DNA of 64,000 bases from Candidatus Omnitrophota bacterium (GCA_043803685.1 JAZDJU010000005.1:11579-75578); one strand, 5' to 3'. Shown: positions 9,029-62,439, numbered from the stretch's first letter. Notes: a model not told the origin generated them from the letters alone. Program-made: numbers and translations.

Positions 9029-9748
9029 ATGAAGGAAAAAATGCCGCATCTTTCCGTGGTTATCCCCGCATACAATGAAGAATTGCGTCTGCCGCAGACT
9101 CTGGCGTCGGTCGTGGCTTTTCTTCAGAGCCAGCCGTATGCATCGGAGATCGTCGTTTCCGATGACGGAAGTCAGGACCGGACGATCCCGCTGGCCGAGG
9201 AACTTCTGAAGGATTTTCCTCATCAGATTCTGAAGGTACCCCGGAATCGAGGAAAAGGTCACGCGGTCCGGCAGGGCATGCTCGCGGCCACAGGCGATTA
9301 TGTTCTTTTTATGGACGCGGACCTGTCGACGCCCATCGAGGAAGTGAACGGGTTTTTAGAGCGTCTTGAAAAAGACCAGGACGTTGTGATCGGTTCACGG
9401 GCGCTTCCGGATTCCCGGGTTGAGATCCACCAGAATTTCTTTCGCGAGAGCATGGGGAAGGTCTTTAATTTTATCGCCCAGCGATGGGCCTTTAAGGGTG
9501 TCCAGGATTCCCAGTGCGGTTTTAAATGTTTTCGCCGGGAGTCGGCTCGGAAGCTTTTTGGCCTTCAGAAACTCGACGGGTTCAGTTTTGATGTCGAGAT
9601 CGTGTATTTAGCTCAAAAACACGGGTTCCGTCTATTAGAGCTTCCTGTGACCTGGCGCAATTCCACCCAAAGTCGTGTCCAAGTTTTTCGGGACCCCCTT
9701 GTGATGTTCTGGGATGTCCTGAGGATACGCAGTCTCCACGCCCGATGA
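9029..9748 (+). CDS. GT2, dolichyl/polyprenyl-phosphate glycosyltransferase (ALG5-like)
   Basis: SVVIPAYNE, DDGSQD, NRGKGHAVRQG, FMDADLSTP, DSQCGFK, FSFDVE. Confidence 0.88.
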   Translation: MKEKMPHLSVVIPAYNEELRLPQTLASVVAFLQSQPYASEIVVSDDGSQDRTIPLAEELLKDFPHQILKVPRNRGKGHAVRQGMLAATGDYVLFMDADLSTPIEEVNGFLERLEKDQDVVIGSRALPDSRVEIHQNFFRESMGKVFNFIAQRWAFKGVQDSQCGFKCFRRESARKLFGLQKLDGFSFDVEIVYLAQKHGFRLLELPVTWRNSTQSRVQVFRDPLVMFWDVLRIRSLHAR

Positions 9749-11421
9749 AAGAGCTTCGCTTCTCTCGCGAAGCGCTCCTTCTTTTTGGTATTATGATCTT
9801 GGCGTTTGCGCTTCGTTTGTGGGGCGTCGGGTTCGGCCTGCCGTTTCTTTACCACGCCGACGAGCCAATCGTTGTGAACCATGCGCTGGCTTTCGGAACG
9901 GGAGACTTCAACCCCCATTTTTTCAACATTCCGCCACTCGTCAGCTATTTGCTTTTTGGTTGCTATGGGATCTTCTGGGGCCTGGGTCACGCCGCAGGTT
10001 GGTTTCAGTCCCTGCGGGATTTTGAACAACTTTTTTATTTTGATCCGAGCTCGTTCTATCTCATTGCTCGTCTCGTTTTCGGTGTATTTCTCGGGACGCT
10101 TTCGGTCTACGCTCTTTTCCGTCTCGCGAAACGTATGGGAACGATGCCGGTGGCATTATGGGCGTGTTTTTTTCTTGCCGTCAATTTTCTCCATGCACGC
10201 GATTCCCATTACATCTATGCGGATATTCCGCTTCTTTTCGTGCTTCTCACGGGTTTTATGATGATCTTTCGTCTTGCGGAAGCGCCTTCCTCGTTAAAAG
10301 GTCACCTTTTTGTCGGAAGCATGATAGGCCTCGCAACGGCGACCAAATACAACGGTGCTTTTCTGGCGATCCCTTATCTTTGGATCTTTTTCCGGTGTGT
10401 GCCCTGGAAGCGGTGGTTCGTTTCCGGTCTTGTGGCGGCGGGCGCTGCCTCAGCAGCTTTTGTTATTCTTAACCCGTACGCAGTCCTTGACCATGCCTTT
10501 TTCGTTAAGGAGCTTGCGGAGCAATCAGCCGCAAATTCCGGAGGGTTGTCCTGGTCTCATCACCTGACCTATTCACTGGCTGGCGCTCTGGGCTGGCCGA
10601 TGCTTATTCTGGCGCTGTTGGGGGTCTTCCCGGGGCTTTTCAGTAAGGATGTAAAACTTCAATCGGTCGCGGTGTTCGTGGCAGGTTATTACGTGGTTCT
10701 TTGCCGTTTTGGACAGCCGTACGATCGTTACGTGTTGCCGTTGGTTCCCTGGATGGTGTTCCTTGCCGCAGGGGTCCTTCTTCGCGTCAAGGCGAGATCC
10801 GCGCTTGTTTTTTGGGTCCTGGTGCCTTTTGTGGTGCTGCCTTCGGTCCTCAAGATCGTGCATTGGGACCAGTTGATGTCAAAGCCGGATGTTCGAACGG
10901 TCACAAAAAACTGGGTTGAAGATCACATTCCCGCGGGGAGTCGTCTGGCGTTGGACGGAGCTTTCTATATGCCGCGTCTGGCATTTTCCCCAAGCCAGCT
11001 TGAAGAAAAAAAAGCGCGTGCGGCAGGAGAATCCCTATCGGCGGCGAAGATCCGCCGGATCGAAGCTCTTCTGGCAAAACCTCTTCAGCCGTCCTATGAA
11101 CTGAATTTTTTAAGTGAGGCACCCGAAGGATCAAGCTTCTTGTTTTCTGAGCCGCGGGTGCCGTTCGATCTTGAGGTTTTGAAGAAAAACGGGATCCAGT
11201 ATGTTCTTTTGGTCGACGCGCTTCGGCCGGACGGGGATCCTTTTTTTCAGGGTCTTTTGACGGGGGCGGATCGTGTGGTCACTTTTTCGCCTTATCGCGA
11301 TCGTGAGGACATGACGATCCATGATCCTCAGGCCATGACCGGCGGGCCTTTTCTTTGGGGGGATACTTTGCCGCGTGAGCGGGGAGGTTATCCGATCACG
11401 ATCTACCGTATCCGTTCGTAA
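9745..11421 (+). CDS. GT-C fold (ArnT/PMT-like) membrane glycosyltransferase
   Basis: ATGA overlap with GT2; first-loop HADE motif, many TM helices, GLATATKYNG, RYVLP, soluble C-terminal domain. Confidence 0.8.
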   Translation: MKELRFSREALLLFGIMILAFALRLWGVGFGLPFLYHADEPIVVNHALAFGTGDFNPHFFNIPPLVSYLLFGCYGIFWGLGHAAGWFQSLRDFEQLFYFDPSSFYLIARLVFGVFLGTLSVYALFRLAKRMGTMPVALWACFFLAVNFLHARDSHYIYADIPLLFVLLTGFMMIFRLAEAPSSLKGHLFVGSMIGLATATKYNGAFLAIPYLWIFFRCVPWKRWFVSGLVAAGAASAAFVILNPYAVLDHAFFVKELAEQSAANSGGLSWSHHLTYSLAGALGWPMLILALLGVFPGLFSKDVKLQSVAVFVAGYYVVLCRFGQPYDRYVLPLVPWMVFLAAGVLLRVKARSALVFWVLVPFVVLPSVLKIVHWDQLMSKPDVRTVTKNWVEDHIPAGSRLALDGAFYMPRLAFSPSQLEEKKARAAGESLSAAKIRRIEALLAKPLQPSYELNFLSEAPEGSSFLFSEPRVPFDLEVLKKNGIQYVLLVDALRPDGDPFFQGLLTGADRVVTFSPYRDREDMTIHDPQAMTGGPFLWGDTLPRERGGYPITIYRIRS

Positions 11422-11493: not shown

Positions 11494-12567
11494 ATGGAAC
11501 ATGAAAAAAATTTGGTGATGGGGAATGTGGCCATGGCGGAAGCCGCGGTCCGTGCGGGTTGCCGCTTTTATGCCGGCTATCCGATCACACCCCAGAATGA
11601 AGTGAGCGAATATCTGGCGAAACGTCTCCCGGAAGCCGGTGGAGTGTTCGTTCAGGCGGAGTCGGAGCTTGCCGCGATCAATATGGTCTTTGGCGCGGCG
11701 GCGACGGGCGCCCGGGCCATGACCTCTTCGTCGAGTCCCGGGGTCAGTCTCATGCAGGAAGCTATCTCTTATCTCGCCGCGGCGCAGATCCCTTGTCTTA
11801 TTGCCAATATCATGCGTGGCGGTCCCGGTCTCGGGAATATCCAGGGGGCCCAGTCGGACTATTTTCAGGCGACCCGCGGCGGCGGTCATGGTGATTATCG
11901 CTTGATCGTGCTGGCGCCGTGGTCCGTCCAGGAAATGTACGACCTTACGATCAAGGCTTTTGAATATGGGGATCAGTACCGTAACCCCGTGATGCTTTTG
12001 GCTGACGGGATCCTGGGGCAGATGGCCGAGGCGATCGAGTACCGGGAGCCGGAGAAAAAGGAGCCTGTTCGCAAGGATTGGACGCTTACGGGTTGTAAAG
12101 GTCGAAAGCCCAACGTGATCCGGACGCTCTATCTGCAGCAAAAAGACGCGCTGGAGGAAAAGAACATGGAACTCAAGGCGAAATATGAGCTGATCTCGAA
12201 GGAGCTGCAGCTTTCCGAGACGCGTTTTGGTGACGATGCGGAGATCGGCGTTATTGCTTATGGAACTCCCGCCCGGATCGCCCATTCCGCCGTCAAGGAG
12301 GCTCGGGCCGCCGGCGTGAAGGTCGGTCTTTTCCGGCCCATCACACTTTGGCCTTTTCCCGTCCTGGAACTCCGAAAACTCGCGGCCCGTTGCCGGAAGC
12401 TTCTCGTGGTTGAAATGAGTCAAGGACAATTGATCGAGGACGTGCGTCTTGCGAGGATCCCCGCGACGGTCGTGGACCCCAAGATCGAATTTTTGGGGCG
12501 CGGGGGGGGCTGGTACCCCAAACCCAAGGAACTTTTCGCGAAGATCATGGAGATCTCAAAAGGATGA
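11494..12567 (+). CDS. vorB: 2-oxoacid:ferredoxin oxidoreductase alpha subunit (VorB-like)
   Basis: GNVAMAEAA, AGYPITPQ, QAESELAAINMV, TSSSSPGVSL, RGGPGLGNIQGAQSDYFQATRGGGHGD, LFRPITLWPFP. Confidence 0.88.
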   Translation: MEHEKNLVMGNVAMAEAAVRAGCRFYAGYPITPQNEVSEYLAKRLPEAGGVFVQAESELAAINMVFGAAATGARAMTSSSSPGVSLMQEAISYLAAAQIPCLIANIMRGGPGLGNIQGAQSDYFQATRGGGHGDYRLIVLAPWSVQEMYDLTIKAFEYGDQYRNPVMLLADGILGQMAEAIEYREPEKKEPVRKDWTLTGCKGRKPNVIRTLYLQQKDALEEKNMELKAKYELISKELQLSETRFGDDAEIGVIAYGTPARIAHSAVKEARAAGVKVGLFRPITLWPFPVLELRKLAARCRKLLVVEMSQGQLIEDVRLARIPATVVDPKIEFLGRGGGWYPKPKELFAKIMEISKG

Positions 12568-13295
12568 CACCCGAACAGAAAACGATCAGGTCCGTCCGGA
12601 TGCACTATTGTCCCGTTTGCGGGCACGCGATCGCCCAGCGTCTGATCGGGGAAGTGATGGACGAACTGGGGATCCGGGAACGGACGATCGGAACCGCGCC
12701 GGTCGGTTGCGCGGTGCTTCTCTATGATTATTTTAATTGCGATATCATTGAATGTCCGCATGGAAGGATCCCGGCGGTTGCTACGGGGATCAAACGGATG
12801 CAGCCCGAGAAGATCGTTTTTGGTTACGGTGGGGACGGAGATCTCCTTTCGATCGGTTTGGCAGAGACCATCCATTGCGCGAACCGCGGCGAGAACATCA
12901 CTATGTTCTTTATCAATAATGCCGTCTACGGGATGACTGGAGGGCAGATGGCGCCGACCACTCTGATCGGGCAGAAGACCATTACGACTCCGGAAGGACG
13001 CGTCGCAGCAACGACAGGAGCTCCATTAAGGATCTGCGAGATGCTGAAGACGCTCGTCCGGCCCGTTTATATCGAGCGTGTGGCCGTCCATGACGCGCAC
13101 CATGTTCAAAGGACCCGCCAGGCTATCCGGAAGGCCTTTCTCAATCAGATCGAGGGGAACGGGTTTTCCTTTGTGGAGATACTTTCGATGTGTCCGACCT
13201 ATTGGCGGATGGGGGGGAAGGAAGCGTGTCAATTTGTGGGGAATGAAATGATGAGTTACTATCCGATCGAAAAATTCCGGGATGCGAGCGAATAA
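12564..13295 (+). CDS. 2-oxoacid:ferredoxin oxidoreductase beta subunit (TPP-binding)
   Basis: YCPVCGH, PVGC, HGR, GGDGD..IG, NNAVYGMTGGQMAPTT, EILSMCPT. Confidence 0.88.
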   Translation: MTPEQKTIRSVRMHYCPVCGHAIAQRLIGEVMDELGIRERTIGTAPVGCAVLLYDYFNCDIIECPHGRIPAVATGIKRMQPEKIVFGYGGDGDLLSIGLAETIHCANRGENITMFFINNAVYGMTGGQMAPTTLIGQKTITTPEGRVAATTGAPLRICEMLKTLVRPVYIERVAVHDAHHVQRTRQAIRKAFLNQIEGNGFSFVEILSMCPTYWRMGGKEACQFVGNEMMSYYPIEKFRDASE

Positions 13296-13843
13296 TGGAA
13301 GAAAAAATATTTGTCGCGGGGTCCGGGGGGCAGGGCGTGATCGTGGCGGGCAATATCCTTGCTCATGCAGCCCTTGAGGAAGGCCGTCACATTCTGGGGA
13401 TGGTTTCCTACGGGGTGGAAGTCCGCGGCGGCGCATCGCACAGTTTTGTGATCATTTCCGATCAGGAGATCGATTGCCCCATTATTGATGAGGCTACGAT
13501 GGGCTTCGCACTCAATCAGGCCGCTTACGAAAAATTCAAGAACAAGACGCGTGACGACGGCGTTTTTTTTGTGGACTCGTCCCAAGTCCAGCAGATGGAT
13601 CTTCCGAACACGACCGGAAAGATCATTGAGATCCCCGCGACACAGATCGCCCGGGAGATCGGGAACGAAAAAGTCACGAACATGATCATGCTTGGCGCTG
13701 CCATCCAGAAGACCGGGATCGTGAAAATGGCCAGCGCCGTCAAAGTCCTCGGCAAAGTTTTCAAGGGGCTTCGCAAGGATCTGATCTACGTGAACGAGAA
13801 AGCTCTTTCTGTCGGCGCTGACCTCATGCGCTCAAAGACCTGA
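13295..13843 (+). CDS. 2-oxoacid:ferredoxin oxidoreductase gamma subunit
   Basis: AGSGGQGV, SYGVEVRGG, IPATQIA, NMIMLGA. Confidence 0.88.
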   Translation: MEEKIFVAGSGGQGVIVAGNILAHAALEEGRHILGMVSYGVEVRGGASHSFVIISDQEIDCPIIDEATMGFALNQAAYEKFKNKTRDDGVFFVDSSQVQQMDLPNTTGKIIEIPATQIAREIGNEKVTNMIMLGAAIQKTGIVKMASAVKVLGKVFKGLRKDLIYVNEKALSVGADLMRSKT

Positions 13844-13862: not shown

Positions 13863-14588
13863 TTATTTGCCGGCTTTGTAGTTCTTGGAGCGGCGGTGCC
13901 ACCAGAACTTCAGACTTTCCCAAAGGGCAAATCCCATGATCTTCATATTGACCGAGGATTTTCCCCATTGGCGGCCGCGGTGGTTCGAGGGTATCTCTTT
14001 GATGCGGAAACCGAGGTCGTGGGCCTTGATGATGATCTCGGGAAGGACGAAAAGCGAACGGGAAGTGAGTTCCATGCTTTCGAGGGTTTTCCGGCTCCAC
14101 GCCTGCGACCAGTTGTAGTCGTTAATGCGGATCTTGAAGAGATAATTTAGAAGAAAAATATAGATCACCGAAAGGAAAAAGCGAAAAAGCTGGTAGGCAT
14201 TCCGCTGCCAGCGAACCCCCAGCAGCACGTCGGTTTCGCCCTTTCGAAGTATCTCCACGAAATTCGGAACTTCGGAGGAATCGAATTCTTCATCGGCTCC
14301 GATATACATGAGGTACTGGCCGCGCGCAGCCTTCAGTCCGTCCTTAAGCGACGGGTTATAGCCCTCGTTCGTTTCGTGAATAATCAGACGGGTGTTGGGA
14401 TACTTTTGGACTTCGTTTTGGAGAACTTCGCGGGTTTTGTCCTTACTGCCGTCCTCGACCAGTACGACCTCCCAGTTCCATTCCGGATGGGTGTTAAGGA
14501 TCGCGAAGAGGTTCGCGAGCATGCGCGCGATGTTCTCTTCTTCGTTGTAGACGGGAGTGATGAAACTGATGAAGGGAGCTGTTTCCAT
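13863..14588 (-). CDS. GT2, polyprenyl-phosphate sugar synthase-like
   Basis: SFITPVYNEE, VEDGSKDKT, NEGY, GADEE, R..GKSS C-terminal motif. Confidence 0.82.
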   Translation of the reverse strand: METAPFISFITPVYNEEENIARMLANLFAILNTHPEWNWEVVLVEDGSKDKTREVLQNEVQKYPNTRLIIHETNEGYNPSLKDGLKAARGQYLMYIGADEEFDSSEVPNFVEILRKGETDVLLGVRWQRNAYQLFRFFLSVIYIFLLNYLFKIRINDYNWSQAWSRKTLESMELTSRSLFVLPEIIIKAHDLGFRIKEIPSNHRGRQWGKSSVNMKIMGFALWESLKFWWHRRSKNYKAGK

Positions 14589-14683: not shown

Positions 14684-16486
14684 TTGAAAATAGCTTTTTA
14701 TTCAAAACGCGGGTGGCTTCTGGCCGCGGGAGTTTTTTTTAGCTTTGCCTCCGCTTGGGTGCCGTATATCGAACAGGTAGGGGGGCGTAATCTGTTCGTG
14801 ACATCTGATTCGATGACGCTCCTCGGCGTAACGATCCTTATCGCCATGCTCTCCGCCTATCTTCTGCCTGATTTTGTTCTGAACGGTCTGTCGCGTTTCT
14901 GGAATCATTTTGCGGTCGTCTTACCGCGTTCCGTGTCCCTTTTTTTGAGCTTGGCGGCCCTGGGATCGCTCGTTTGGGTCCTTTATAATATCAATCAGGT
15001 CATCCTCCACGCTTTTCTGAGCTCAGCGGACGAACACTCCTGCTATTTTCTCGCCGAGTGCCTGCGCAAGGGCAAGCTTTATGTCGAGATCCCGCCGCTT
15101 GCCGATTTTTTCAAGGTTGTTCATGTGGGGATGAAAGGCGGAAAATGGTTCAGCGTTTATCCTCCCGGGTGGCCGCTTCTCTGGGCGGTAGGGCTCAAGT
15201 TCCATATCGTGGATTGGCTCAATCCGGTGCAGTCGGTGATCGCCGTCTATTTCCTTTATCTTTCAGGCGAGAGATTGTTCGGCCGCATGACGGCAGCGCT
15301 GGGACTTCTACTCATGTGCCTTAACCCGTTTTTTATGTTCACGGCCGCTTCCTATTTTTCCCACGCGACTTGCTTGCTCTGTATTTCCGTTTTTCTTTAC
15401 GCGTTCCTCCGTTGGCGTGAGGCCTACGACGCAGGGCGGGATCCTGTGGGTTGGTCATTCGTTTGCGCGTTTGCAGTGGGTTATGGCCTTATGACGCGCT
15501 ATCTGACCGTGGCCGCCGTCGCGGCGCCGTTCCTTCTCTATCACTATCTCTCGATCTTTTTTGAATGGCGTGGATGGGGAAACGGGAAAGGCTTGGGCCT
15601 TTTTTGCCACCGTCCGTTCGTATTCAAACGTCCCCGATTCCGGAAGAGTGATGGGGTCGCGATCGTGGTGATCGGCCTCTTTATGGCATTGATCCTTTGG
15701 CAAAATTATCTCGTGACAGGGAAAGCCTTCAAGGCGCCGAACAAATACGACAAATCCTGGGAGAGACTCGGTTTTAGGAAGAATTACACGTTCCTTGATG
15801 CTTTCTTTTATCTGATCGCCCGGGTTTTCTTCCTCATGGATTGGTTCGCTCCGGCGGTTGTGGCGGCCTATCTATGGCTTTTGGGGCGAAAAAAATCGCT
15901 GAGTGCTATTTCAGCCTTGAAAGATCCTGGGGCCAGAAACGGAACAAAGATCATCAAGCGTCTTTTTTTCCTCACGATGGTTTTTGTCGCCGGCGCCTAT
16001 TTCTTTTATTACTCCTGGGGCGGGAACCAATGGGGCCCTCGTTACCTTTGGGAGGGAATGCCTTTCCTGTGCATGACCGTTGCGGGATGGGCCGTGGCCC
16101 AGTGGGAAAACGGGGGAATGCGTGCTCGAAAGTTTTTACTGGTTTTTATGACGGTGTCTTTTGTGTCGTCCGGGATCTTGTTCGTCAAACAGGCGGAGTT
16201 CACGGAGGAAGCCAGCTTCGAGCGCCGCTCGCTTTACGACCTTGCGGAACAGACGGTCGAAGGACCAGGCATCGTTTTTATTCACGGGTTTCTCGGTGAT
16301 CGGCTGGTGTTGTCTGAAGACGATGCCGTTCGCAATAGCCCTTTCCTTGACGGGAGGATCCTCTATGTCCATGATCTTGGTGAGAGGAACAAAGAGCTTA
16401 CGACAGCCTATCCGGGCAGGAGTTATTACAGGGGATGGTATGATCGCGAAATGAAGAAGCCGTTACTCGAACCCTTGGCTGTCTGA
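14684..16486 (+). CDS. GT-C fold membrane glycosyltransferase-like protein
   Basis: Multi-TM; SADE acidic loop motif, YPPGWP, SYFSH, WGPRYL; TTG start after GGAG SD. Confidence 0.7.
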   Translation: MKIAFYSKRGWLLAAGVFFSFASAWVPYIEQVGGRNLFVTSDSMTLLGVTILIAMLSAYLLPDFVLNGLSRFWNHFAVVLPRSVSLFLSLAALGSLVWVLYNINQVILHAFLSSADEHSCYFLAECLRKGKLYVEIPPLADFFKVVHVGMKGGKWFSVYPPGWPLLWAVGLKFHIVDWLNPVQSVIAVYFLYLSGERLFGRMTAALGLLLMCLNPFFMFTAASYFSHATCLLCISVFLYAFLRWREAYDAGRDPVGWSFVCAFAVGYGLMTRYLTVAAVAAPFLLYHYLSIFFEWRGWGNGKGLGLFCHRPFVFKRPRFRKSDGVAIVVIGLFMALILWQNYLVTGKAFKAPNKYDKSWERLGFRKNYTFLDAFFYLIARVFFLMDWFAPAVVAAYLWLLGRKKSLSAISALKDPGARNGTKIIKRLFFLTMVFVAGAYFFYYSWGGNQWGPRYLWEGMPFLCMTVAGWAVAQWENGGMRARKFLLVFMTVSFVSSGILFVKQAEFTEEASFERRSLYDLAEQTVEGPGIVFIHGFLGDRLVLSEDDAVRNSPFLDGRILYVHDLGERNKELTTAYPGRSYYRGWYDREMKKPLLEPLAV

Positions 16487-49822: not shown

Positions 49823-50430
49823 GTGTTCTTGTTGTCGATTACCATATGTGCAATCTCGGTTCCGTTCGCCGGGCCCTCGAAGAGATCGGCGCCGAGGTGA
49901 TCGTCTCCGATGATCCCGCGGATCTGAAAAAGGCTGAAAGACTCATTCTTCCCGGCGTTGGATCTTTCAGGGACGGGATGACGCACTTGCGTGATCTGGG
50001 ATGGGAGCCTGAGATATTGAACGCCGTTCGCGAGGGGGTACCCCTTTTTGGCATTTGTTTGGGGATGCAACTCCTGCTGTCGAAAGGCCGCGAAGGCGGC
50101 GAAACGCCCGGGCTTTCCTTGATCTCTGGTGAAGTGAAACGCCTTGAGCCCGAACCTGCCGGGACGCGCATTCCCCATGTCGGATGGAACGAAGTCCATC
50201 CGGTAACATCCTCGGACCTTCTTCGCGATATCACGGACGGCACGGATTTCTATTTCGTCCACAGTTACCACGCTGTTGTGGAAAATAAAACGGATGTTCT
50301 TGCGACGACGCCCTACTGCGGCGGCTTTGTTTCCGCAGTCCATTCGGGGAATGTCTGGGGGGTTCAGTTCCATCCGGAAAAAAGCGGTAAGCCCGGGTTC
50401 AAATTGCTTCAGAATTTCCTAAAACTCTAA
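49819..50430 (+). CDS. hisH: HisH-like glutamine amidotransferase (glycan-locus paralog)
   Basis: LPGVGSF, GICLGMQ, PHVGWN, YFVHSY, QFHPEKS. Confidence 0.9.
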   Translation: MSVLVVDYHMCNLGSVRRALEEIGAEVIVSDDPADLKKAERLILPGVGSFRDGMTHLRDLGWEPEILNAVREGVPLFGICLGMQLLLSKGREGGETPGLSLISGEVKRLEPEPAGTRIPHVGWNEVHPVTSSDLLRDITDGTDFYFVHSYHAVVENKTDVLATTPYCGGFVSAVHSGNVWGVQFHPEKSGKPGFKLLQNFLKL

Positions 50431-50443
50431 AGCCGGGGATCTC

Positions 50444-51223: not shown

Positions 51224-51228
51224 ATTCT

Positions 51229-52966: not shown

Positions 52967-52995
52967 GACGCGATTTCTCTCGTCTGGAAACTATT

Positions 52996-54726: not shown

Positions 54727-56179
54727 ACACAAAGAGATCGTCCGGCAGTCGAGTCTTTATTCCCTAAGCACCCTTGTGACGCAACTGATCACAGTGGTTG
54801 CCGCCTTTTTGACCCGGAGATTTCTCGGTCCGACGCAGATGGGTATTTGGTCGACCCTCCAGATCCTTGTCGATTATTCCAAGTACGCCGTGTTGGGGAC
54901 CATGTCCGCTGTTAGCGTCGAGATTCCTTACTGGATCGGAAAAGGGGATGGGGAACGAGCGGAAAAGATCAAGAACATCGCATTCACCTTTGTCGTGATC
55001 AGCACACTTGTTTTTTGCGGCGCGATAGCGGCGTTTGCTTTGCTGACCCAGGGAAAATTTCCCGCGGAGGTGACGTTCGGTCTTTTCTTTGTTTCCGCGA
55101 TCATCTTTCTCCAACGCATCAATAATCTGCTCATCGCGCTTTTGCGATGCTACAAGAAATTCCATATCGAGTCCGGCCAAATGATCTGGTCGGCCGTGGT
55201 GAACGCTCTTTTGATCGCAGGGCTTGCTTCGCGGTTCAAGCTTTATGGTTTTATCTGGGCGTTGGGGTTGAGTTTTGTTTTCAACATTTTCTATCTCGCA
55301 AGGCAATACCGGTATAATTTTCGCTGGTGTTTTGACCGGCAGATCTTCCAGCCGCTTCTGGTCCGGGGCTTTCCGCTTATGCTCCTGGGGCTCATGAATA
55401 CCGGGCTCCAGAACATCGACCGGATGGTTATCGCCAAAATGTTGAGTTTCGAACTTTTGGGGATGTACAGTATTGCGCTCATGACATGCTCCTTTATCAG
55501 TAACTTTTTTAGCGCGACGAGCACTGTGATGGTGCCTCATTTTCAGGAAAAAATGGGCGAAACGGACGATCCGAAGAGTTTGCGGGAGTTTTTGTTTAAA
55601 GCGTCGTTACCGCTGGCGTTGGTCATGCCGGTTTTTATTACGTGCTCGTGGATCTTTTTACCCTACTTCATTCAGCTGTGTCTTCCCAAGTTCGTTCCCG
55701 GCGTCATGGCGATGAAGTTCCTGGTGCTTGGTACTTTTTTTACCGCGATGACGCAGCCCTATCAGAATTATCTGGTGACCGTTAAAAGGCATATGCGGAT
55801 ATTCCCGATCGTGGGGATGGCGATCATTTTTTCCGCAGGATTGAGCTGGGGGGCAGTCCGCTTGCATTTTGGGATCGAAGGAGTGGCCGTGGCGGTGACT
55901 TCAGCGGCATTCGTAAATTTCACTTTAAGCTATTTTGTTTCTGCGAGATCCTTTGCAAGTGTCTGGGAAGCCATGCGCCGGTATCTGATCCTTGTCGGGT
56001 TCTTCGCCTATCTGCTCGTTTTTCTTGGTCTTGAAGCCTGGGGCACTTCATTCTTGGGTGGTGGCTTTGTCCGTGCTATAACAGGGATCTTCGCGTGGCT
56101 TGTTTTTTCCTTGCCTCTCATGATTATTTTAAATATGCGTTTTTCGTTTTTTCGTCATCTTAAGGAAAAGTTTGTATGA
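54719..56179 (+). CDS. wzx: Oligosaccharide flippase (Wzx/MOP family)
   Basis: More than 10 TM helices; RRFLGP..MG, GFPLML, IDR, LGMYSIA. Confidence 0.85.
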   Translation: MSRHKEIVRQSSLYSLSTLVTQLITVVAAFLTRRFLGPTQMGIWSTLQILVDYSKYAVLGTMSAVSVEIPYWIGKGDGERAEKIKNIAFTFVVISTLVFCGAIAAFALLTQGKFPAEVTFGLFFVSAIIFLQRINNLLIALLRCYKKFHIESGQMIWSAVVNALLIAGLASRFKLYGFIWALGLSFVFNIFYLARQYRYNFRWCFDRQIFQPLLVRGFPLMLLGLMNTGLQNIDRMVIAKMLSFELLGMYSIALMTCSFISNFFSATSTVMVPHFQEKMGETDDPKSLREFLFKASLPLALVMPVFITCSWIFLPYFIQLCLPKFVPGVMAMKFLVLGTFFTAMTQPYQNYLVTVKRHMRIFPIVGMAIIFSAGLSWGAVRLHFGIEGVAVAVTSAAFVNFTLSYFVSARSFASVWEAMRRYLILVGFFAYLLVFLGLEAWGTSFLGGGFVRAITGIFAWLVFSLPLMIILNMRFSFFRHLKEKFV

Positions 56180-57642
56180 ACGAGAAGAAACGAACGGTCA
56201 TTCTTTTCAATCCCCGCGCCATGCGCGGCGTGGGAGAGGATTCCATCCCGCCGATCGGGCTCTTAATGGCCGCGATCCATCTCCACGAGAAGTACGATGT
56301 TGTCATCATCGACCAACGAGTGGAAAAGGACTGGAAAGCGCTTCTGGAAGACCTCCTGAGCAAGAACCCTGTCTGTCTTGGAATTAGCGCTCTGACCGGG
56401 AAGCAGATCGAATGGGCACTTCGGGCCTCGGAGATCGCGAAAAAGAGGGGGTGTCCGGTGGTCTGGGGAGGGATCCATGCAAGTCTTTTGCCCGCCCAAA
56501 CCCTCATGCATCCGTTCGTCGATTATGTGGTACAGGGCGAGGGGGAGGAGTCCTTCCCTGAACTTCTTGAGGCTCTAGTCGATGGAAGATCTTGTGAAAA
56601 GATCCCGGGTATCTGGAGTAAGAAGGACGGAGCGCCTGTTTTTGGTGGCGTGAGACCTTTCGTCGATATTATGAAGCTTCCCCCGGTCCCTTATCACCTG
56701 GTGGATTTGAATCGCTACATTAAGCCGGGCCCTCATGGGAAAACGATCGTTTTTTTTACTTCCCGTGGATGTCCGCAGCGCTGTACGTTCTGTTTTAATC
56801 ATACATTCAATCAATCCCGCTGGCGCGCATTTTCCCCGGAAAGAGTGATGGAAGATATTCGTCGAATTCAAAGCGAGCATCCTGATGTGGCTCATTTTGA
56901 ATTCTGGGATGATGACTTTTTCGTCAATCTCGCGCGGGCTAAAAAGATCGCGGAAGGTATTACGAAACTGGACTTGCCGATCACCTGGTCAGTGCTTGGA
57001 GCGCATGTTCGTGAAGTGACCTTGATGGATGAAGCGTACCTCGCCGTTTTAAAAGAGAGCCGTCTCAAAGGACTCATTGTCGGCGTGGAAGCGGGCTCTC
57101 AGAAAATGATCGATATCATCCAGAAAAATTTCAAACTGGACGAGCTTTTTGCCATTAACCGGAAGCTCTACGATTTTCACATCACTCCCACGTATAGCTT
57201 TATCAGTGGGATCCCCGGGGAAGATGATGAGGATATCAAGAAGAGCATCGAAGTCATGTTCCGGCTCAAGCGCGAGAATCCTGAGGCTGTGGTCGGTAAC
57301 ATCAAGCCATTTGTTTGCTATCCGGGGACCGCGCTTTACGCGAAAATGACCGAGCAAGGGTTCCGGCCTCCTCAAAAGCTCGAGGACTGGATCGACTATG
57401 TGTGGGGAAATTACATGAATCTCGACGTGCCCTGGGTCTCCAAGGAGCGCCGCCGTTTTCTTAGCTGGCTGTACTACTATACCGTACTCATGAACCCCAC
57501 CTATATATTCATACGCTCAAGGATGTTCACGGTTATTGCCCGCCTCTTGAAACCACTTGCAGAATGGCGGGTCAAGAATTTCTGTATGAAATTCCCCGTT
57601 GAAGCGCAACTCATGTATCTGGCGCAACGCTTTGTGCTCTAA
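56176..57642 (+). CDS. B12-binding radical SAM protein
   Basis: PPIGL, WGGIHAS, GEGE, SRGCPQRCTFC, DDDF, GVEAG, YPGT. Confidence 0.9.
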   Translation: MNEKKRTVILFNPRAMRGVGEDSIPPIGLLMAAIHLHEKYDVVIIDQRVEKDWKALLEDLLSKNPVCLGISALTGKQIEWALRASEIAKKRGCPVVWGGIHASLLPAQTLMHPFVDYVVQGEGEESFPELLEALVDGRSCEKIPGIWSKKDGAPVFGGVRPFVDIMKLPPVPYHLVDLNRYIKPGPHGKTIVFFTSRGCPQRCTFCFNHTFNQSRWRAFSPERVMEDIRRIQSEHPDVAHFEFWDDDFFVNLARAKKIAEGITKLDLPITWSVLGAHVREVTLMDEAYLAVLKESRLKGLIVGVEAGSQKMIDIIQKNFKLDELFAINRKLYDFHITPTYSFISGIPGEDDEDIKKSIEVMFRLKRENPEAVVGNIKPFVCYPGTALYAKMTEQGFRPPQKLEDWIDYVWGNYMNLDVPWVSKERRRFLSWLYYYTVLMNPTYIFIRSRMFTVIARLLKPLAEWRVKNFCMKFPVEAQLMYLAQRFVL

Positions 57643-57652
57643 GGAGAACTCC

Positions 57653-59185
57653 ATGTCATCCGGATCGTCACGTCTTAAGGTCTTGATCGTCTCACCGCCG
57701 TACCGTCTCTCGGCAGTATGTCTGCCGCTTGGACTGGCTTACATTGCGGCGGTTGTGCGCAAGGCAGGTTACCCGGTCGAAGTGATCGATATGGATGTTA
57801 AAAATCACTCTCCCGAGGAGTTCAAACGGATCCTTCAGGAAAAACATTTCGATGTTCTGTGTCTCGGGGGCATGATCACGGCTTGGAATTTTTTCAAGTT
57901 CACCTGCGATCATGTCAAAAGGATCAAACCCGGGGTCAAGGTCGTGATCGGTGGAGGCGTGATCACCTCGACGCCACGTTCGTTTTTGAGCGTTTCGCCG
58001 GCAGATGTCGGTGTGATCGGAGAGGGAGAGGACAAGGTCCTGGAACTCCTTTCAGCTTTTGAGCAGGGGCGGCCCCTGAGCGAGATCCATGGCATTGTTT
58101 ACCGGGAAGGCGACCAGATCCAACAGACACCCCCTGGAGCGCTCATCGAGGATCTGGACAGGATCCCGTTCCCGGCCTGGGATCTTTTTGACGTGGCGAA
58201 CAGTTACGCTCGCTATCCCTCTCATAACTCTTTGATCAAGGCCCGGAGGCAAATGGCGATCGCGACAAGCCGCGGCTGTCCCTACCAATGCACTTTTTGC
58301 TACACCGAAAAGAAAGTCCGCTATCGCAGTGTGGAGAACGTCCTGGCTGAAATGGAAGAGCTGAAAAATCGCTACGGGGTGACTCATTTCAGCCTGGTCG
58401 ATGATCTATTCGTCGCGCAGAAAAAGAGGGTGGTCCATTTCTGCGAGGAATTGATCCGCCGGAAGATGAATGTCAGTTGGAATGCTGCGGGACGTTGTAA
58501 CCTTGCGGACTACGAGCTTTACAAATTGATGAGATCGGCGGGTTGCTACGAGCTCGGTCTCGGGATCGAATCGGGAAGCGCCGCGATCCTGGATTCCATC
58601 AAAAAGAAACAAACTCCCGAGCAGGTCATTCACGCGGTGAAAACGGTGCAGAAAGCGGGCATTGTTCCTGGGGGGACGTTCATTTTAGGCCTTCCGGCGG
58701 AGACTCCGGAAACTGTTCGAGAGACCGTGGAGGTCTATAAGACCATCAATTCGTATCGTTCGCTCCTTAATCAGTTCTTTTTTGCGACGCCCTATCCGGG
58801 GACCGAGCTTTATGAAACCGTCAAAAAGAAAGGCCGGATCCCCGACGAGATCGCTTTTTTTGAAATGTTGTCTCAGAAGGGGGATGCGGTGGATTTTGTT
58901 ATTAACTGCACGGATGCTTTTACCGATAAAGAGTTGGTTGTAACTAAGGCGGCTGTTGAAAAGGAAGTTTTCGCGGATTTTATGAAAAAACACCCCCTTT
59001 TCGCGTTTTCTCGGTGGCTAGCGCGTGAGACGCCCTGGGGAAAGCTTAAGGTGCTCCTGCTCAGGATCAAAATGCGTGGTTTGATAGAGATGCTCCAGTT
59101 CCTTTGGATCAAACTGAAAGTGAAGCAAGGGAAGATCCCGGATCCGTTCGTAAGGCATTGGGCAAAGATCCATTCCTCAATCTAA
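57653..59185 (+). CDS. B12-binding radical SAM protein
   Basis: PLGLAYIAA, GEGE, SRGCPYQCTFC, DDLF, GIESG, FILGLPAET, PYPGT; AAGGAG SD. Confidence 0.9.
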   Translation: MSSGSSRLKVLIVSPPYRLSAVCLPLGLAYIAAVVRKAGYPVEVIDMDVKNHSPEEFKRILQEKHFDVLCLGGMITAWNFFKFTCDHVKRIKPGVKVVIGGGVITSTPRSFLSVSPADVGVIGEGEDKVLELLSAFEQGRPLSEIHGIVYREGDQIQQTPPGALIEDLDRIPFPAWDLFDVANSYARYPSHNSLIKARRQMAIATSRGCPYQCTFCYTEKKVRYRSVENVLAEMEELKNRYGVTHFSLVDDLFVAQKKRVVHFCEELIRRKMNVSWNAAGRCNLADYELYKLMRSAGCYELGLGIESGSAAILDSIKKKQTPEQVIHAVKTVQKAGIVPGGTFILGLPAETPETVRETVEVYKTINSYRSLLNQFFFATPYPGTELYETVKKKGRIPDEIAFFEMLSQKGDAVDFVINCTDAFTDKELVVTKAAVEKEVFADFMKKHPLFAFSRWLARETPWGKLKVLLLRIKMRGLIEMLQFLWIKLKVKQGKIPDPFVRHWAKIHSSI

Positions 59186-59204
59186 ATCGAAAAGGTCGTG
59201 ATCG

Positions 59205-60239
59205 ATGAAGGTGTCATTTTTACAATATCTGCAATGTCCTCATTGCCGGAGTGTGGATCTTAAGGTCCACTCGTTCCGGAATTCCGGAGAGGAGATCGAA
59301 AACGGGATGATCGTTTGCAACGCTTGTCGCGTCTGGTATCCGGTTGTTGACGGGATCCCGGTCGTTTCTAAAACGCCGGTCCTTGTGGATAAATGGAAAA
59401 AGGCGGTCCGCGCGCAGTGGGGTCAAAACTACGATTTTTCAAGCCTCAAGGAGCCTTTAGCCACGGCAGAAGATGCCAAGGCTTCGGAAGATCAGGGAGC
59501 GCAGATCGAGTTTTACGATCACGAGGCTGACCGTTATGATGAGGAGATCACGGATACGACTTTTTGGCGGGCGTTCGCAAAACAGACCATTCATGCGTGG
59601 GGCGCTACGACAGAGGCTAAGGCGGGAGTGATCCTGGAGGTTGGGTGCGGCACGGGGGCATCCACGGCGGCCCTGGCGGGCTTAGGTTGCAGGATCGTGG
59701 CTCTCGACATCTGCCTTACAACTGCGAAACGAGCGCGGGAGAAGATCCGGCGGCTCGGTCTCGATCCAGCTGTGGACTTTATCGTGTCGGAGGCCGAGGA
59801 CTTACCGTTCCGGCCCGGCCTTTTTAAAAGCAGTGTTTTTAGCGGCGTACTTCACCACGTCTCAGATCCGATCCGGGTTTTGAAACAGATCTCGGGTGTG
59901 CTATGCGAGGGCGGTACGATCTATGGTCATGAGAATAATGCCTCTGCTTTTCGTTTTCTGTTCGACCTTCTTATGAAAATGAAGCAACTGTGGCATGAAG
60001 AGGCGGGGACGCATCCTCTGATGAAAGCAGCTCAAGTTCAAGCCTGGGGGAAACAGGCCGGACTCAGGGTGAAGGCTAAAAGCCTTGTTTTTTTACCCCC
60101 TCATTTTTTCAACCTCTTTCCGCGATCCTTGGCGGAAGGGCTTCTCTCTTTTTCAAATTTTATGTTCGGTTGGGTTCCCTGGTTCAAGGACCAGGGCGGG
60201 CTTTTGATTCTTTCCGGAACCAAGATGACGAGGGAGTAA
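59205..60239 (+). CDS. Class I methyltransferase with N-terminal Trm112-like Zn-ribbon
   Basis: CPHC..CNAC..YPVVDGIP, then LEVGCGTG, AEDLPF, GVLHH. Confidence 0.85.
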   Translation: MKVSFLQYLQCPHCRSVDLKVHSFRNSGEEIENGMIVCNACRVWYPVVDGIPVVSKTPVLVDKWKKAVRAQWGQNYDFSSLKEPLATAEDAKASEDQGAQIEFYDHEADRYDEEITDTTFWRAFAKQTIHAWGATTEAKAGVILEVGCGTGASTAALAGLGCRIVALDICLTTAKRAREKIRRLGLDPAVDFIVSEAEDLPFRPGLFKSSVFSGVLHHVSDPIRVLKQISGVLCEGGTIYGHENNASAFRFLFDLLMKMKQLWHEEAGTHPLMKAAQVQAWGKQAGLRVKAKSLVFLPPHFFNLFPRSLAEGLLSFSNFMFGWVPWFKDQGGLLILSGTKMTRE

Positions 60240-60242: not shown

Positions 60243-61682
60243 ATGATCCTTTGGAACGCGTTCTACACATACTTTATTGACCGGGGAAACAATCCCAAAT
60301 ACATCGCGCTCGGCATTCTGGCCGGACTTTTTATTCTGGGGCGCACACGCCTACCGGGTTGGTTTCGCGCGCGTCTATCACACATTCCGGCAAAGCAATG
60401 GCTTCTCGCGATCCTCGTGATCGGGTTCGTGCTTCGGATCGTGTGGTGCTTGTGGTCGCCTTACAGTCCGCCCGCGGCCGGAACCGAGGATTACATCATG
60501 ATCCGTCATGCCCATGAGTTTTCGGTGGGGAAAGGTTATATCACCACTGAGGGAGCTCCCAGCGCGGACCGGCCGGTCGGATACGCGATCCTGCTTGCCG
60601 GTGTATTCAAATTTCTCGGCGAGAACCTGGATTGGGTCGCGCTCATGAACGCGCTCCTCAGCCTTGTCACCCTGGGGCTCGTTTACCGGCTGGGCATCCA
60701 GATGAAGAACGAGTTTGTGGGACTTTTGGCCGCTTTTCTCGTCGCGATCTATCCGACTTCCATTTTTGCCACTCGCATTGTCCTGGAGGAGCATGTCTTT
60801 CTTCCGATGTGGTTGGGGGGCATCCTCCTCCTGATCCTGGATTACCAGAAGCCGGACTGGAAAAAGGTCGTGACGGCCGCGCTCCTTTTTGGCGCCGCGG
60901 CGCATGTCCGGACTTTTTCGTTCGCCATGGGCGGGGTTGTTTTTCTGATGTGGATTTTCAAGAAAAATTTCAAACAGGCTGTTTTGAGAACCCTCGTCGT
61001 CCAGGCGATCATCATCATGTTGGCGGTGCCTTGGGCTATCCGTAACCAGCAGAAGCTCGGCGAGCCTGTGCTCTACACGACCTGGATCGGCCCTGCCCTT
61101 TATTTCTCTAATAATGACGTGAGCGACGTTCGTTATCCCATCAATCCTTCCGCGGAGCAGGGCGGAGATATCGCATTCTCGAAGGCTAAAACAGAGATCG
61201 AGCGAAACCACGCGGGGAAGAATGCGGCGATGCAATGGATCAAAACCCATCCTTCGGTATTTATTCAAAAGGCGTTGGGACGCGTGGTCTACATGCTCGG
61301 TCTAACCCGTGAAGGCTGGGCCCTGACGGACAATTTTAATACTGTGAAGCCGGGTCGCGAAAAACCCTCCGCTAAGACCGTCAAGGTGTTCAACAAGATG
61401 GATAATGATTATTACGGTGTGATTTTCCTGTTGGCGCTTTTCGGGTTGATCGTTTTCTTTTTCCCGAAGGAACGCCTCACTCACAATCGGGGGATCGGCT
61501 ATATGTTCCTGACCCTGGCCTACTATCTTTCGATCATCGCCCTCACGATGGGCCACCGGAAATACCGGTTTGTGATCGAGCCTTTTTTCTGTATACTCGC
61601 CGCCTACGGCGTCTCGTTTTTCTTAACGTTCCCGGCCCCATGTTCATGTAAAGGAAATCAGGCTTGTGAGCAGAACGGATGA
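60243..61682 (+). CDS. GT-C fold (ArnT/PMT-like) membrane glycosyltransferase
   Basis: Multi-TM; ED loop, RPVGY, AIYP, PWAIRN, KYRF. Confidence 0.78.
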   Translation: MILWNAFYTYFIDRGNNPKYIALGILAGLFILGRTRLPGWFRARLSHIPAKQWLLAILVIGFVLRIVWCLWSPYSPPAAGTEDYIMIRHAHEFSVGKGYITTEGAPSADRPVGYAILLAGVFKFLGENLDWVALMNALLSLVTLGLVYRLGIQMKNEFVGLLAAFLVAIYPTSIFATRIVLEEHVFLPMWLGGILLLILDYQKPDWKKVVTAALLFGAAAHVRTFSFAMGGVVFLMWIFKKNFKQAVLRTLVVQAIIIMLAVPWAIRNQQKLGEPVLYTTWIGPALYFSNNDVSDVRYPINPSAEQGGDIAFSKAKTEIERNHAGKNAAMQWIKTHPSVFIQKALGRVVYMLGLTREGWALTDNFNTVKPGREKPSAKTVKVFNKMDNDYYGVIFLLALFGLIVFFFPKERLTHNRGIGYMFLTLAYYLSIIALTMGHRKYRFVIEPFFCILAAYGVSFFLTFPAPCSCKGNQACEQNG

Positions 61683-62439
61683 TCTGAAGGTTTCGCTTTT
61701 TATCCCGGTTTTCAACGCTTTCGCCTATATCCCGCACGCGCTAAGCGAGTCCCACCGGGCGCTGTCCGAGTGCTGCCGTGAATTCGAGGTCGTCGTGGTC
61801 AATGACAACTCAAATGATCAGACCGCGGATTTCCTGAAGAATATAGGGCAGGCTAAGTATCCGGAGGGGGAAAAGGTCCGCGTGATCACGAATACCACCG
61901 GGCCCTCACGTCGTGAGAATCTTGCGGCTGCTTTTTCCTCGGCCCGCTATGACACGCTAGGCTTTATCGATGTCGACCTTTCCTGCGGCATGAATTACCT
62001 GGTTGCTGCTTTGGAGCGTCTGGAGCAAGAGAAGGCCGACATCGTGGTCGGGAGTCGATATATCCAAGGGGCCAAGGTGACGCGGGAGCCTTTTCGCCGC
62101 ATCATGAGTTTTTTTTACAATTTGACCATTCAGATCCTCTTCGGGTCGAAGATCCTGGACCATCAATGCGGACTGAAGGTTTTCCGGCGTGGGCCTGCCG
62201 AGCTTATTTTCAAAGAGATGGGCTATGACCACGCCTACCGGCGCGGCTGGTTCTGGGATGCCGAGTTCCTGATCCGGGCGCAAGCCAAGGGACTTAAGAT
62301 CATCGAAATGCCGGTGGAGTGGCACTTTGCGCGCACGAGCACTTTCCTGTTTTTTCGTGAGTGGAAATGCATTGGGACTATGCTCAGGCTTCGGATCGAT
62401 CTGATCCCGTGGCTCAAAAAGTTTTTGAAGCCCTGCTAA
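61666..62439 (+). CDS. GT2, polyprenyl-phosphate sugar synthase-like
   Basis: IPVFN, NDNSND, IDVDLS, VGSRY, DHQCGLK, WFWDAE, EMPVEW. Confidence 0.85.
   Translation: MSRTDDLKVSLFIPVFNAFAYIPHALSESHRALSECCREFEVVVVNDNSNDQTADFLKNIGQAKYPEGEKVRVITNTTGPSRRENLAAAFSSARYDTLGFIDVDLSCGMNYLVAALERLEQEKADIVVGSRYIQGAKVTREPFRRIMSFFYNLTIQILFGSKILDHQCGLKVFRRGPAELIFKEMGYDHAYRRGWFWDAEFLIRAQAKGLKIIEMPVEWHFARTSTFLFFREWKCIGTMLRLRIDLIPWLKKFLKPC

Follow-up and report, generated by a model that had tools for sequence, protein, structure and literature searches.

A putative Omnitrophota envelope-glycan locus with an ordered, lineage-wide array of predicted GT-C glycosyltransferases

The window analysed here is a 64,000-nucleotide stretch of DNA from a Candidatus Omnitrophota bacterium (G000:C5:11579-75578, where G is a genome handle and C a contig), and its end is the end of the contig. 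Its closest homologues carry the source label Candidatus Omnitrophota (P0002; L150-L154). The window holds six family 2 glycosyltransferase genes (GT2a to GT2f) and seven genes for multi-transmembrane (multi-TM) proteins of the glycosyltransferase C (GT-C) type (GTC1 to GTC7), together with sugar-making and tailoring genes, and we read it as the probable front part of a conserved envelope-glycan locus.

Genes and predicted folds in the window

The features are given by position in the window, strand and content.

1337-3853, +: LptD-family outer-membrane barrel (PF04453), a conserved 5' flank that lies upstream of the GT2a block in relatives
3889-9020, +: Ugd, RmlA, RmlB, RmlD and a UDP-xylose-synthase (UXS)-like short-chain dehydrogenase/reductase (SDR), from library matches; RmlC is on C103
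9029-9748, +: GT2a, ALG5-like predicted polyprenyl-phosphate-sugar synthase, core gene (PF00535; best PDB match Dol-P-Man synthase, DPMS, 5mlz)
9745-11421, +: GTC1, PMT_2 GT-C (PF13231; invariant D39-E40)
13863-14588, -: GT2b, DPMS-like GT2 (PF00535), conserved, nearly always reversed relative to the locus and not tied to GTC2
14684-16486, +: GTC2, PMT_2 GT-C (PF13231; invariant D116-E117)
16497-17420, -: TylF-family O-methyltransferase (PF05711)
17513-19879, +: GTC3, YfhO-like GT-C with a large, presumably periplasmic C-terminal soluble domain, core slot (weak PF09586; model)
19931-21367, +: B12-binding radical S-adenosylmethionine (SAM) enzyme 1 (profile match)
21369-22520, +: GT2c, AglJ-like GT2 with four C-terminal TM helices (PF00535; close orthologue in one relative only)
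22532-24397, +: GTC4, PMT_2/PMT GT-C, core slot (PF13231; invariant D131)
24400-26064, +: two SAM methyltransferases, MT1 (conserved near GTC4/GTC5) and MT2 (sporadic)
26069-26830, +: GT2d, DPM1-like GT2 (Arg117/Arg131/Ser135 equivalents; PDB 5mlz, E 8e-31)
26859-28415, +: GTC5, PMT_2-like GT-C without a conserved Asp/Glu; GTC5 and GT2d subtypes change together
28636-34174, +: heptose-like or higher-carbon sugar cassette (epimerase, HldE-like, GmhA-like, SPASM radical SAM, split transketolase)
34167-34910, +: GT2e, most divergent DPM-clade GT2, without the Arg117 equivalent and with no adjoining GT-C here
34904-38425, +: B12 radical SAM enzyme 2 and three small proteins of 2-3 TM helices, no named family
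38365-40092, -: GTC6, GT-C_A fold, family without a Pfam or NCBIfam name (model; invariant D30, D34)
43610-52966, +: pseudaminic-acid-type cluster (PseC, PseG-like, Pse methylase, PseF-like, PseB, PseI; WbuX/HisH/WbuZ amidotransferase; formyltransferase)
52996-54726, +: GT-B-like protein, from its position a candidate nonulosonate transferase (weak TIGR04396/NF046086, below cut-off)
54677-56179, +: Wzx-family flippase (PF13440, PF01943 above cut-off)
56176-60239, +: two B12 radical SAM enzymes and a Trm112-fused methyltransferase
60243-61682, +: GTC7, PMT_2 GT-C (PF13231); the Trm112-methyltransferase/GTC7/GT2f trio is also in G009
61666-62439, +: GT2f, ALG5/AglD-like GT2 (PF00535)
62501-63998, +: Gmd and a GT4 gene interrupted by the contig end (5' half; the 3' half is at the start of contig C69)

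A first-pass annotation of this DNA had counted six GT2 and seven multi-TM GT-C genes, and all 13 are present where it had placed them, its numbers for the two minus-strand members (13863-14588 and 38365-40092) being their stop ends. The neighbours it listed, namely UXS/rml, TylF, B12-radical SAM and methyltransferase genes and the HldE/GmhA cassette, are also in the window. It had passed over the Wzx-family flippase (54677-56179), the pseudaminic-acid cluster with its GT-B-like gene (43610-54726), lptD, and three unrelated 2-oxoacid:ferredoxin oxidoreductase genes (11494-13843). This oxidoreductase trio also lies within the glycan locus elsewhere in the genus and in G043, and directly follows GT2a where GTC1 has been lost.

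The assignment of the GT2 proteins to a DPM/ALG5-like class is borne out. All six match PF00535 above cut-off. A tree of the genome's PF00535 matches (31 of 34, three weak ones being left out) places them in a single 12-member DPMS/ALG5/GtrB-like clade (support 0.99), as GT-A enzymes of the polyprenyl-phosphate-sugar synthase type. The window thereby holds 6 of the 12 DPM-like GT2s of the genome, against 0.3 expected. When three typical members, GT2a, GT2b and GT2d, were searched, the best PDB match was the Pyrococcus Dol-P-Man synthase, with ArnC next. According to the structural work on that synthase, its lipid-phosphate residues are Arg117, Arg131 and Ser135 (PMC5526996). An equivalent of Arg117 is kept in five of the six GT2s, and all three residues are found in the GT2d and GT2b alignments. 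The GT2 that lacks it, GT2e, is the weakest member of the clade and has less specific best matches. Between 36825 and 37887 lie two small proteins that resemble each other, each composed of 2-3 TM helices and a soluble C-terminal portion; they belong to unnamed Atlas clusters spread across several phyla, and also occur in G009, G016 and G033, each with a GT2e-like gene in the locus. They may be partners of the GacJ or DPM2/3 kind.

GT2a is matched in 56 of the 65 genomes of the family. Directly upstream of it stands, in 20 of 36 loci, an SDR gene that we take from its motif class to be UXS-like, and in 13 others a different SDR gene. The adjoining Ugd and UXS-like genes suggest xylose as the sugar that GT2a would load.

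The GT-C assignment was checked by profiles and structure prediction, as the first-pass annotation had proposed, and held for all seven proteins. PMT_2 (PF13231) is matched at or above cut-off by the genes at 9745, 14684, 22532, 26859 (borderline, 26.1 bits) and 60243, and the remaining two gave AlphaFold models with Foldseek matches to GT-C_A enzymes. Five of the genome's 19 PMT_2 matches lie in the window, where 0.4 would be expected; the abundance of PMT_2 is not specific to the window, since 29 of 31 sampled genus or order genomes (G000 included) have matches, with a maximum of 19. The folds of GTC3 and GTC6 were taken from the predicted models and not from PDB sequence matches, as the GTC3 alignment found none in the PDB and GTC6 had no match in Pfam, NCBIfam or PDB sequence searches. 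GTC3 matches YfhO (PF09586) weakly, with one homologue above cut-off, and its model (pLDDT 86) resembles ArnT, AftD and AglB. The GTC6 model (pLDDT 86) matches PglB/STT3, DPY19, AglB, ArnT, ALG9/12 and Pmt; against Pmt2 it gave a Z of 19.8 (root-mean-square deviation 4.5, 377 residues aligned), against ALG12 18.1 and against ALG9 15.7. Both proteins thus model as GT-C_A, and a comparison of GTC6 with WaaL gave a probability of 0.25 and a TM score of 0.12. The Atlas offers for GTC6 a 15% PMT_2 lead only.

By HHalign, five slots are mutually related (best probabilities 92-99%) and all score below 1% against the ligase or Wzx; GTC3, GTC6 and the DUF2079 protein described below were not firmly linked to other slots (best probabilities 20, 10 and 53). 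An iterated local hidden Markov model of GT-C drifted to unrelated proteins after two rounds and was not used for counts. Inverting transferases of the GT-C_A class have a conserved acidic residue in the first external loop, and such a residue is present in GTC1, GTC2, GTC3, GTC4 and GTC6. Invariant positions are D39 and E40 in GTC1 (52/52), D116-E117 in GTC2 (17/17), D131 in GTC4 (46/46), and D30 and D34 in GTC6; the GTC7 alignment has four rows only. In two relatives, GTC3 contains one in-frame stop (G055:C12:146210-148558 and G076:C21:8855-11293; TAA and TAG).

Other multi-TM genes occur elsewhere in G000. A second GT-C array on C100 (L001:6170-14724) comprises three PMT_2 genes and an 8-TM gene without a family name, accompanied by genes for a B12 radical SAM enzyme and a GT4; no DPM-like GT2 adjoins it, and one of its members belongs to the GT-C family found on C69. 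Eight further related multi-TM proteins, which we take to be TMTC-like, are encoded on C1, C18, C37, C54, C103 and C106 (L005, L008, L010, L014, L017), several of them as tandem pairs. Two of the eight and a further neighbour carry TPR repeats, and one pair lies beside a DPM-like GT2. They are candidates for a separate protein glycosylation set.

Gene order and slot exchange among relatives

The array is an ordered, lineage-wide skeleton and not a set of free units. GTC3 was found in 51 of 66 genomes of the order; with a stricter cut-off it was present in 45 of 54 in the order and in 15 of 197 elsewhere in the phylum. On 70 contigs picked for holding GT2a or GTC3, the order GTC1-GTC3 holds in 47 of 48 cases and GTC3-GTC4 in 41 of 45; GTC4 or the C69-type GT-C is likewise present at 53 of 58 GTC3 loci. 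Of the 29 loci taken from the best relatives, 23 have GTC1 after GT2a, in one case separated by a flippase-like gene; five lack GTC1, and in one the contig ends. Outside the order, 9 of 14 fetched genomes show the GT2a-GTC1-GTC3 order. Distant GTC1 homologues under other-phylum labels mostly had no recognised GT2 within 3 kb, as judged from short flanks and BLAST labels.

In the window, five of the six GT2s directly adjoin a GT-C, as the first-pass annotation had stated (permutation p 0.002 with 57 genes, 0.004 within a 48-gene span); one of these pairs, 13863/14684, is head-to-head on opposite strands. In relatives, adjacency is kept at GT2a-GTC1, while a direct GT2 neighbour is found for GTC3 in 11/57, GTC4 in 13/45, GTC2 in 6/16, GTC5 in 14/24 and GTC6 in 2/4 cases, genes at a fetch edge being included in n. 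Most GT-Cs of relatives thus have no adjoining GT2, and therefore the five tidy pairs of the window overstate the rule. Minimal loci (G048, G076, G077) have five GT-Cs and two DPM-like GT2s, so that a scheme of one GT2 for each GT-C is not supported. A GT2b-GTC2 cassette was likewise rejected: the two adjoin in only 4 of 29 loci, and GT2b stands beside the ligase gene in 5 of 20 ligase loci. In G014, the locus is present twice, on contigs C15 and C17 (L121, L129, L222, L223), the copies differing in slot types and both carrying a ligase gene, as a result of duplication or of a mixed bin.

Upon this skeleton, GT2 and GT-C subtypes are exchanged together at the GTC3 and GTC5 slots, against the core-gene tree. 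All trees were quick LG+G4 and FastTree reconstructions. For GTC3, 24 genomes with GT2a, GTC1 and GTC3 were used, after exclusion of one second copy and of two GTC3 rows that were divergent or truncated. The eight genomes with an upstream GT2 of a 2-TM type form one GTC3 clade (1 change, support 100), while on the GT2a+GTC1 tree the same eight need 6 changes (shuffled mean 6.9; approximately unbiased (AU) test, p 0.004). In a 44-row tree this clade has 13 members, nine with the 2-TM GT2 and four, from other families, without it, and none of the 31 other rows has that GT2; the nine include G062, whose GT2 lies four genes up and escaped the neighbour rule. At the GTC5 slot, three GT2 types fall on three GTC5 clades (12 of 13 rows labelled), which takes 2 changes, compared with 5 when mapped on the core tree (AU p = 1e-30 and 1e-73). 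G018, G053 and G078 (another family) have GT2s that are 90-94% identical and GTC3s that are nearly neighbouring, and a recent transfer is therefore suggested. In five genomes, a variant of the GTC3 slot consists of a GT2, a 540-aa gene of unknown function, an LPG_synthase_TM flippase-like gene and GTC3. The paired trees and the synteny thus support the earlier proposals of GT2/GT-C co-evolution and of cassette exchange at the 17513 and 26859 slots, as subtype swaps within the ordered skeleton; they do not extend them to every unit or to free one-to-one units.

Some tailoring genes accompany particular slots, as had been proposed. An epimerase is found with one GT2 type in 9/9 cases, the flippase-like gene near another in 6/6, and a GDSL gene near GTC2 in 8/11; MT1 is near GTC4 in 15/24. 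TylF lies within two genes of GTC4 in three of four relatives, and a partnership with GTC2 or GTC3 is accordingly unsupported. A unit-specific tailoring role is unsupported for the B12-radical SAM enzymes: 39 B12-binding matches were counted in the genome, and the window's five have close orthologues in 0-2 loci each. Elsewhere in G000 (C119:10580-29661), a run of ten of these 39 genes, nine almost without interruption, is flanked by GT2 genes.

In the heptose-like cassette (28636-34174), the HldE-like gene has its nucleotidyltransferase domain in first position; the cassette recurs in G009, G016 and G047, and the second subunit of its split transketolase is short (163-183 aa), also in G009. 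The cassette is a candidate route to an unusual higher-carbon sugar. In the pseudaminic-acid-type cluster, PseB, PseC, PseI, the Pse methylase, WbuX and WbuZ are above NCBIfam cut-offs, and relatives also have the GT-B-like gene between PseI and Wzx. A short unlisted stretch resembling an open reading frame (47300-47575), located between the PseF-like gene and PseB, looks by eye like a helix-turn-helix or excisionase-type protein. Relatives carry other inserted cassettes. That of G009 (L060:5337-10837) comprises a PPDK-like kinase, a glutamine amidotransferase, a nucleotidyltransferase and a cytidylate kinase, and presumably resembles a phosphoramidate pathway; that of G050 (L090:11563-14463) has a phosphoenolpyruvate mutase and a thiamine-diphosphate decarboxylase (phosphonate).

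Terminal enzyme, proposed assembly and rival explanations

The first-pass annotation had recognised no Wzy, Wzz, WaaL or initiating phosphoglycosyltransferase (PGT). This holds inside the window; the seeming lack of WaaL and of the initiating transferase arises because the contig breaks at the window end. The GT4 fragment at the end of C5 corresponds approximately to residues 6-168, and the start of C69 to residues 175-364, of one GT4 gene in three relatives. Contig C69 encodes a CDP-alcohol phosphotransferase, a DUF2079 protein, another PMT_2 GT-C, two ordinary GT2s and a Wzy_C protein, and would thus add two further GT-C-like genes and a WaaL-like ligase to the locus. In G009, a single contig runs from GTC7-GT2f through DUF2079, GT-C, GT2s, ligase, GT9, two GT4s, a WcaJ-like PGT, a GT2 and an aminotransferase-like gene to a GmhB-like phosphatase; its genes are 52-92% to those of C69 and C18, and the block from GT9 to the GmhB-like gene is C18 in G000. 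The WcaJ-like PGT is above the NCBIfam cut-off. With Wzx inside the locus, the WaaL-like ligase past the break and a WcaJ-like initiator contiguous with the locus in G009, independence from a standard pathway is not supported.

The ligase family (21 sequences) has WaaL (7tpg, E 1.3e-11) as its sole PDB match. In WaaL (GT121), two diphosphate-binding Arg and one His in a periplasmic loop, Arg191, Arg265 and His313, are described (PMC10920833). The aligned R223, R280 and H386 are invariant in all 21 homologues, the C69 gene included. In 16 genomes, the ligase shares contig and strand with GTC3 and is located downstream of it, within 80 kb in 15. Of 20 loci fetched around the ligase gene, 14 contain a PGT and 13 a GT9, often with a GmhB-like gene in the same block. 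In G000, G004, G005 and G055, the ligase (L007:7413-8852) has about 64 residues (316-379) without a counterpart in most homologues.

GTC3 and the ligase are inherited together. Among 66 genomes, 48 have both, nine neither, three GTC3 alone and six the ligase alone (agreement 57/66; Fisher p 2e-5), although this and the following p value are overstated because of incomplete assemblies, single-query searches and related genomes. GTC3 and STT3 do not show the same pattern: 24 genomes have both, five neither, 27 GTC3 alone and ten STT3 alone (agreement 29; p 0.24). STT3 was therefore ruled out as the terminal enzyme, not being found in 27 of 51 GTC3 genomes. A link to STT3 of the kind known from Pgl/Agl N-glycosylation was not observed, the one STT3 gene of G000 lying on C10 among unrelated genes. 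Moreover, all five members of the genus that lost GTC1 are also without the ligase, while GT2a is kept in them. Besides STT3, the genome encodes five Wzy_C proteins and LpxC. Wzz is found only on C14 and C93, and no Wzy was recognised in the locus, though Wzy families escape profiles.

We estimate at about 0.6 the probability that the window forms the front part of an envelope-glycan locus conserved in Omnitrophota, in which an undecaprenyl-diphosphate (Und-PP)-linked glycan would be flipped, lengthened by GT-Cs on the periplasmic side and then ligated, with lipid A-core as the most probable acceptor. To judge from gene families and synteny, the WcaJ-like PGT, the GT4s, GT9 and the two ordinary GT2s would build the Und-PP-glycan in the cytoplasm, and the GT-B protein beside the pseudaminic-acid genes probably contributes too. 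Wzx would flip this glycan and possibly also undecaprenyl-phosphate-linked sugars, as work on GacK proposes for Wzx in the role of donor flippase (PMC8035078). The six DPM/ALG5-like GT2s, judged by their family, would load monosaccharides on undecaprenyl phosphate, with GT2a and GT2b as core donors and GT2c, d, e and f as slot-specific ones. The GT-C-fold proteins would then add, in the fixed order of their genes, one residue each, and the C69 enzyme with its WaaL signature would transfer the finished glycan. Lipid A-core appears the likeliest acceptor because of lptD, GT9, the GmhB-like gene and LpxC. Diversity would arise as the GT-C subtype of a slot is swapped along with its GT2 and some sugar-making genes, a co-exchange seen at two slots. 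More tentatively, and at less than even odds, the product may be a short non-repeating O-glycan of lipopolysaccharide (LPS) made by a relay like that of the endoplasmic reticulum (ER): a small Und-PP core would be flipped, extended by five to ten GT-Cs served by few polyprenyl-phosphate-sugar synthases, and ligated by WaaL without Wzy/Wzz, and the surface type would change by horizontal swap of single stations with their donor synthase.

Several points count against this periplasmic assembly. Activities, donors and acceptor are all predicted, and the order of genes need not be the order of reactions. No exact overlap of at least 10 bases joins C5, C69 or C18 to any contig, and the C5-C69 join is therefore an inferred one; C18, with the PGT block, is connected to the locus through relatives only. 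Donor flipping is left without an explanation because GtrA had no match in G000 (a 91% complete genome) and the sole LPG_synthase_TM gene is on another contig, C67, although in six relatives such a gene lies within the locus. Co-inheritance has exceptions, six genomes having the ligase without GTC3 and three the reverse, and related genomes are not independent. The second GT2 type of the GTC3 slot (G018/G053/G078) follows the GTC3 tree only weakly (4 changes, compared with 5 on that of GTC1), and in G081 that GTC3 occurs without the GT2. In 25 GTC5 sequences, no Asp or Glu is conserved at 85%, and an invariant Gln38 stands where other slots have D or DE; GTC5 may work by a different mechanism or transfer a group that is not a sugar. 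Additionally, WaaL-like enzymes can act as protein O-oligosaccharyltransferases, and the sequence of the C69 ligase is compatible with such a role.

This last point leads to an unlikely alternative, in which the same assembly ends on pilins or giant surface proteins instead of LPS. All 21 ligase homologues match only Wzy_C, a family that also holds pilin O-oligosaccharyltransferases, the lack of a recognised Wzz or Wzy in the locus fits a short non-repeating glycan, and the genome encodes membrane proteins of 5,000-10,000 aa. Against a protein acceptor stand lptD at the start of the locus, the frequent presence of GT9, a heptosyltransferase family, near the ligase (13/20), often with a GmhB-like gene too, and the fact that no PglL-type extra domain was detected in the ligase homologues.

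The strict version of the first-pass annotation, in which independent GT2 and GT-C units, merely situated in an LPS region, would each place one sugar directly on lipid A, protein or glycolipid in the manner of ArnT or Pmt, seems distinctly improbable. It could account for the five adjoining pairs, for the exchange of cassettes at two slots (in one instance between families, with GT2s of 90-94% identity), for ArnT and Pmt among the best structural matches, and for the retention of GT2a in five genomes without GTC1. It does not account for the fixed order throughout the order and in other parts of the phylum, for the majority of GT-Cs being without an adjoining GT2, or for the coinciding losses of GT-C and ligase, and the genome has the eight separate TMTC-like proteins and STT3 for protein acceptors. 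An ordinary Wzx/Wzy O-antigen locus, with some multi-TM gene as an unrecognised polymerase and some slots, such as GTC5, transferring no sugar, is very improbable indeed. Wzx is present, GTC5 lacks the conserved Asp/Glu, DUF2079 and several unlabelled multi-TM genes of relatives have no fold assignment, and Wzy families are described as highly diverse (PMC10920833); but both unnamed proteins of the window model as GT-C_A, with GTC6 remote from WaaL in the comparison given above, the five others match PMT_2, and Wzz occurs on C14 and C93 only.

Related systems and significance

In its logic, the locus would work like multi-component transmembrane glycosylation, in a form that appears not to have been described previously. 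Those systems (GtrA-GtrB-GtrC; CsbB-GtcA-YfhO; CsdAB/CD/EF; GacI-J-K-L; Citrobacter ORF12/14/15) likewise combine a GT-A polyprenyl-phosphate-sugar synthase with a PMT_2- or YfhO-type GT-C, and one slot variant of relatives groups a GT2, a flippase-like gene and a GT-C in the same way. Unlike them, the Omnitrophota locus unites six DPM-like GT2s with the seven GT-Cs of the window and a further two GT-C-like genes on C69, all in a conserved order, whereas the three pairs of L. lactis have locus tags far apart and different acceptors; in addition, GtrA was not found here and GTC6 is in no named family. The cited parts of a study of the Gram-negative systems give the acceptor as the Und-PP-linked O-glycan before ligation, and mention more elaborate systems with several GT-Cs in Xanthomonas and Bacillus without an explanation of them (PMC11127046).

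Other pathways share single elements with the locus. GT2a, b and d resemble ArnC, the GTC3 and GTC6 models match ArnT, and Ugd is present as in the Arn pathway; that pathway has one GT-C in place of many, and no Arn NCBIfam model was matched at cut-off by the 54 window proteins (best ArnC, 77/529 bits), with no ArnA, ArnB or ArnD. The loci of Wzx/WaaL O-antigens (WcaJ/WbaP, Wzx, Wzy, Wzz, WaaL GT121) also have a WcaJ-like PGT, Wzx, a WaaL-like ligase and a variable middle between conserved ends, but differ by the GT-C_A array and by the lack of a recognised Wzy/Wzz here. The mycobacterial arabinan and lipomannan enzymes (AftA-D, Emb, Mpt, PimE) are a further parallel, in which an envelope glycan grows outside the cytoplasm through the action of many GT-Cs that draw on polyprenyl-phosphate-sugars. 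AftA, AftB, AftD and Emb are structural matches here, though at only 10-14% identity; unlike that series, the present locus belongs to an LPS-type diderm and has many candidate donors, Wzx, a WaaL-like ligase and nonulosonate genes.

The eukaryotic dolichol pathway (DPM1/ALG5 to ALG3/9/12/6/8/10) offers an image of such a relay, and GTC6 matches ALG12 and ALG9. As outlined in the cited sources, a few Dol-P-sugar synthases of the ER feed several consecutive GT-Cs on a flipped lipid-diphosphate-glycan, which is then transferred en bloc (PMC13503287; PMC4973528). The likeness is one of analogy and not orthology: sequential action is a conjecture for the Omnitrophota locus, its co-inherited terminal enzyme is WaaL-like and not STT3, and its slots are exchanged between lineages.

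Searches of literature listings and of the openings of abstracts found no description of this Omnitrophota locus. In the main text of a preprint on complete Omnitrophota genomes (10.64898/2026.06.07.730766), the terms GT-C, PMT, mannosyltransferase and glycan do not occur, and LPS/capsule glycosyltransferases appear solely among the cargo of variable loci.

As presented in the cited parts of the Gram-negative work, lipid-phosphate-sugar/GT-C systems are add-on decorations, mostly one per locus. In the present case, the GT-Cs are the conserved, ordered core of a putative envelope-glycan locus across an order and parts of an uncultured phylum, and they are inherited with the ligase. The locus also represents a resource of matched natural GT2/GT-C pairs, with an unnamed GT-C family (GTC6) and a GT-C family without the conserved acidic residue (GTC5), which could be used to study how GT-Cs pick their donors. 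If the GT-Cs do act in sequence, the system would be a bacterial LPS counterpart of both the ER dolichol relay and mycobacterial arabinan assembly.

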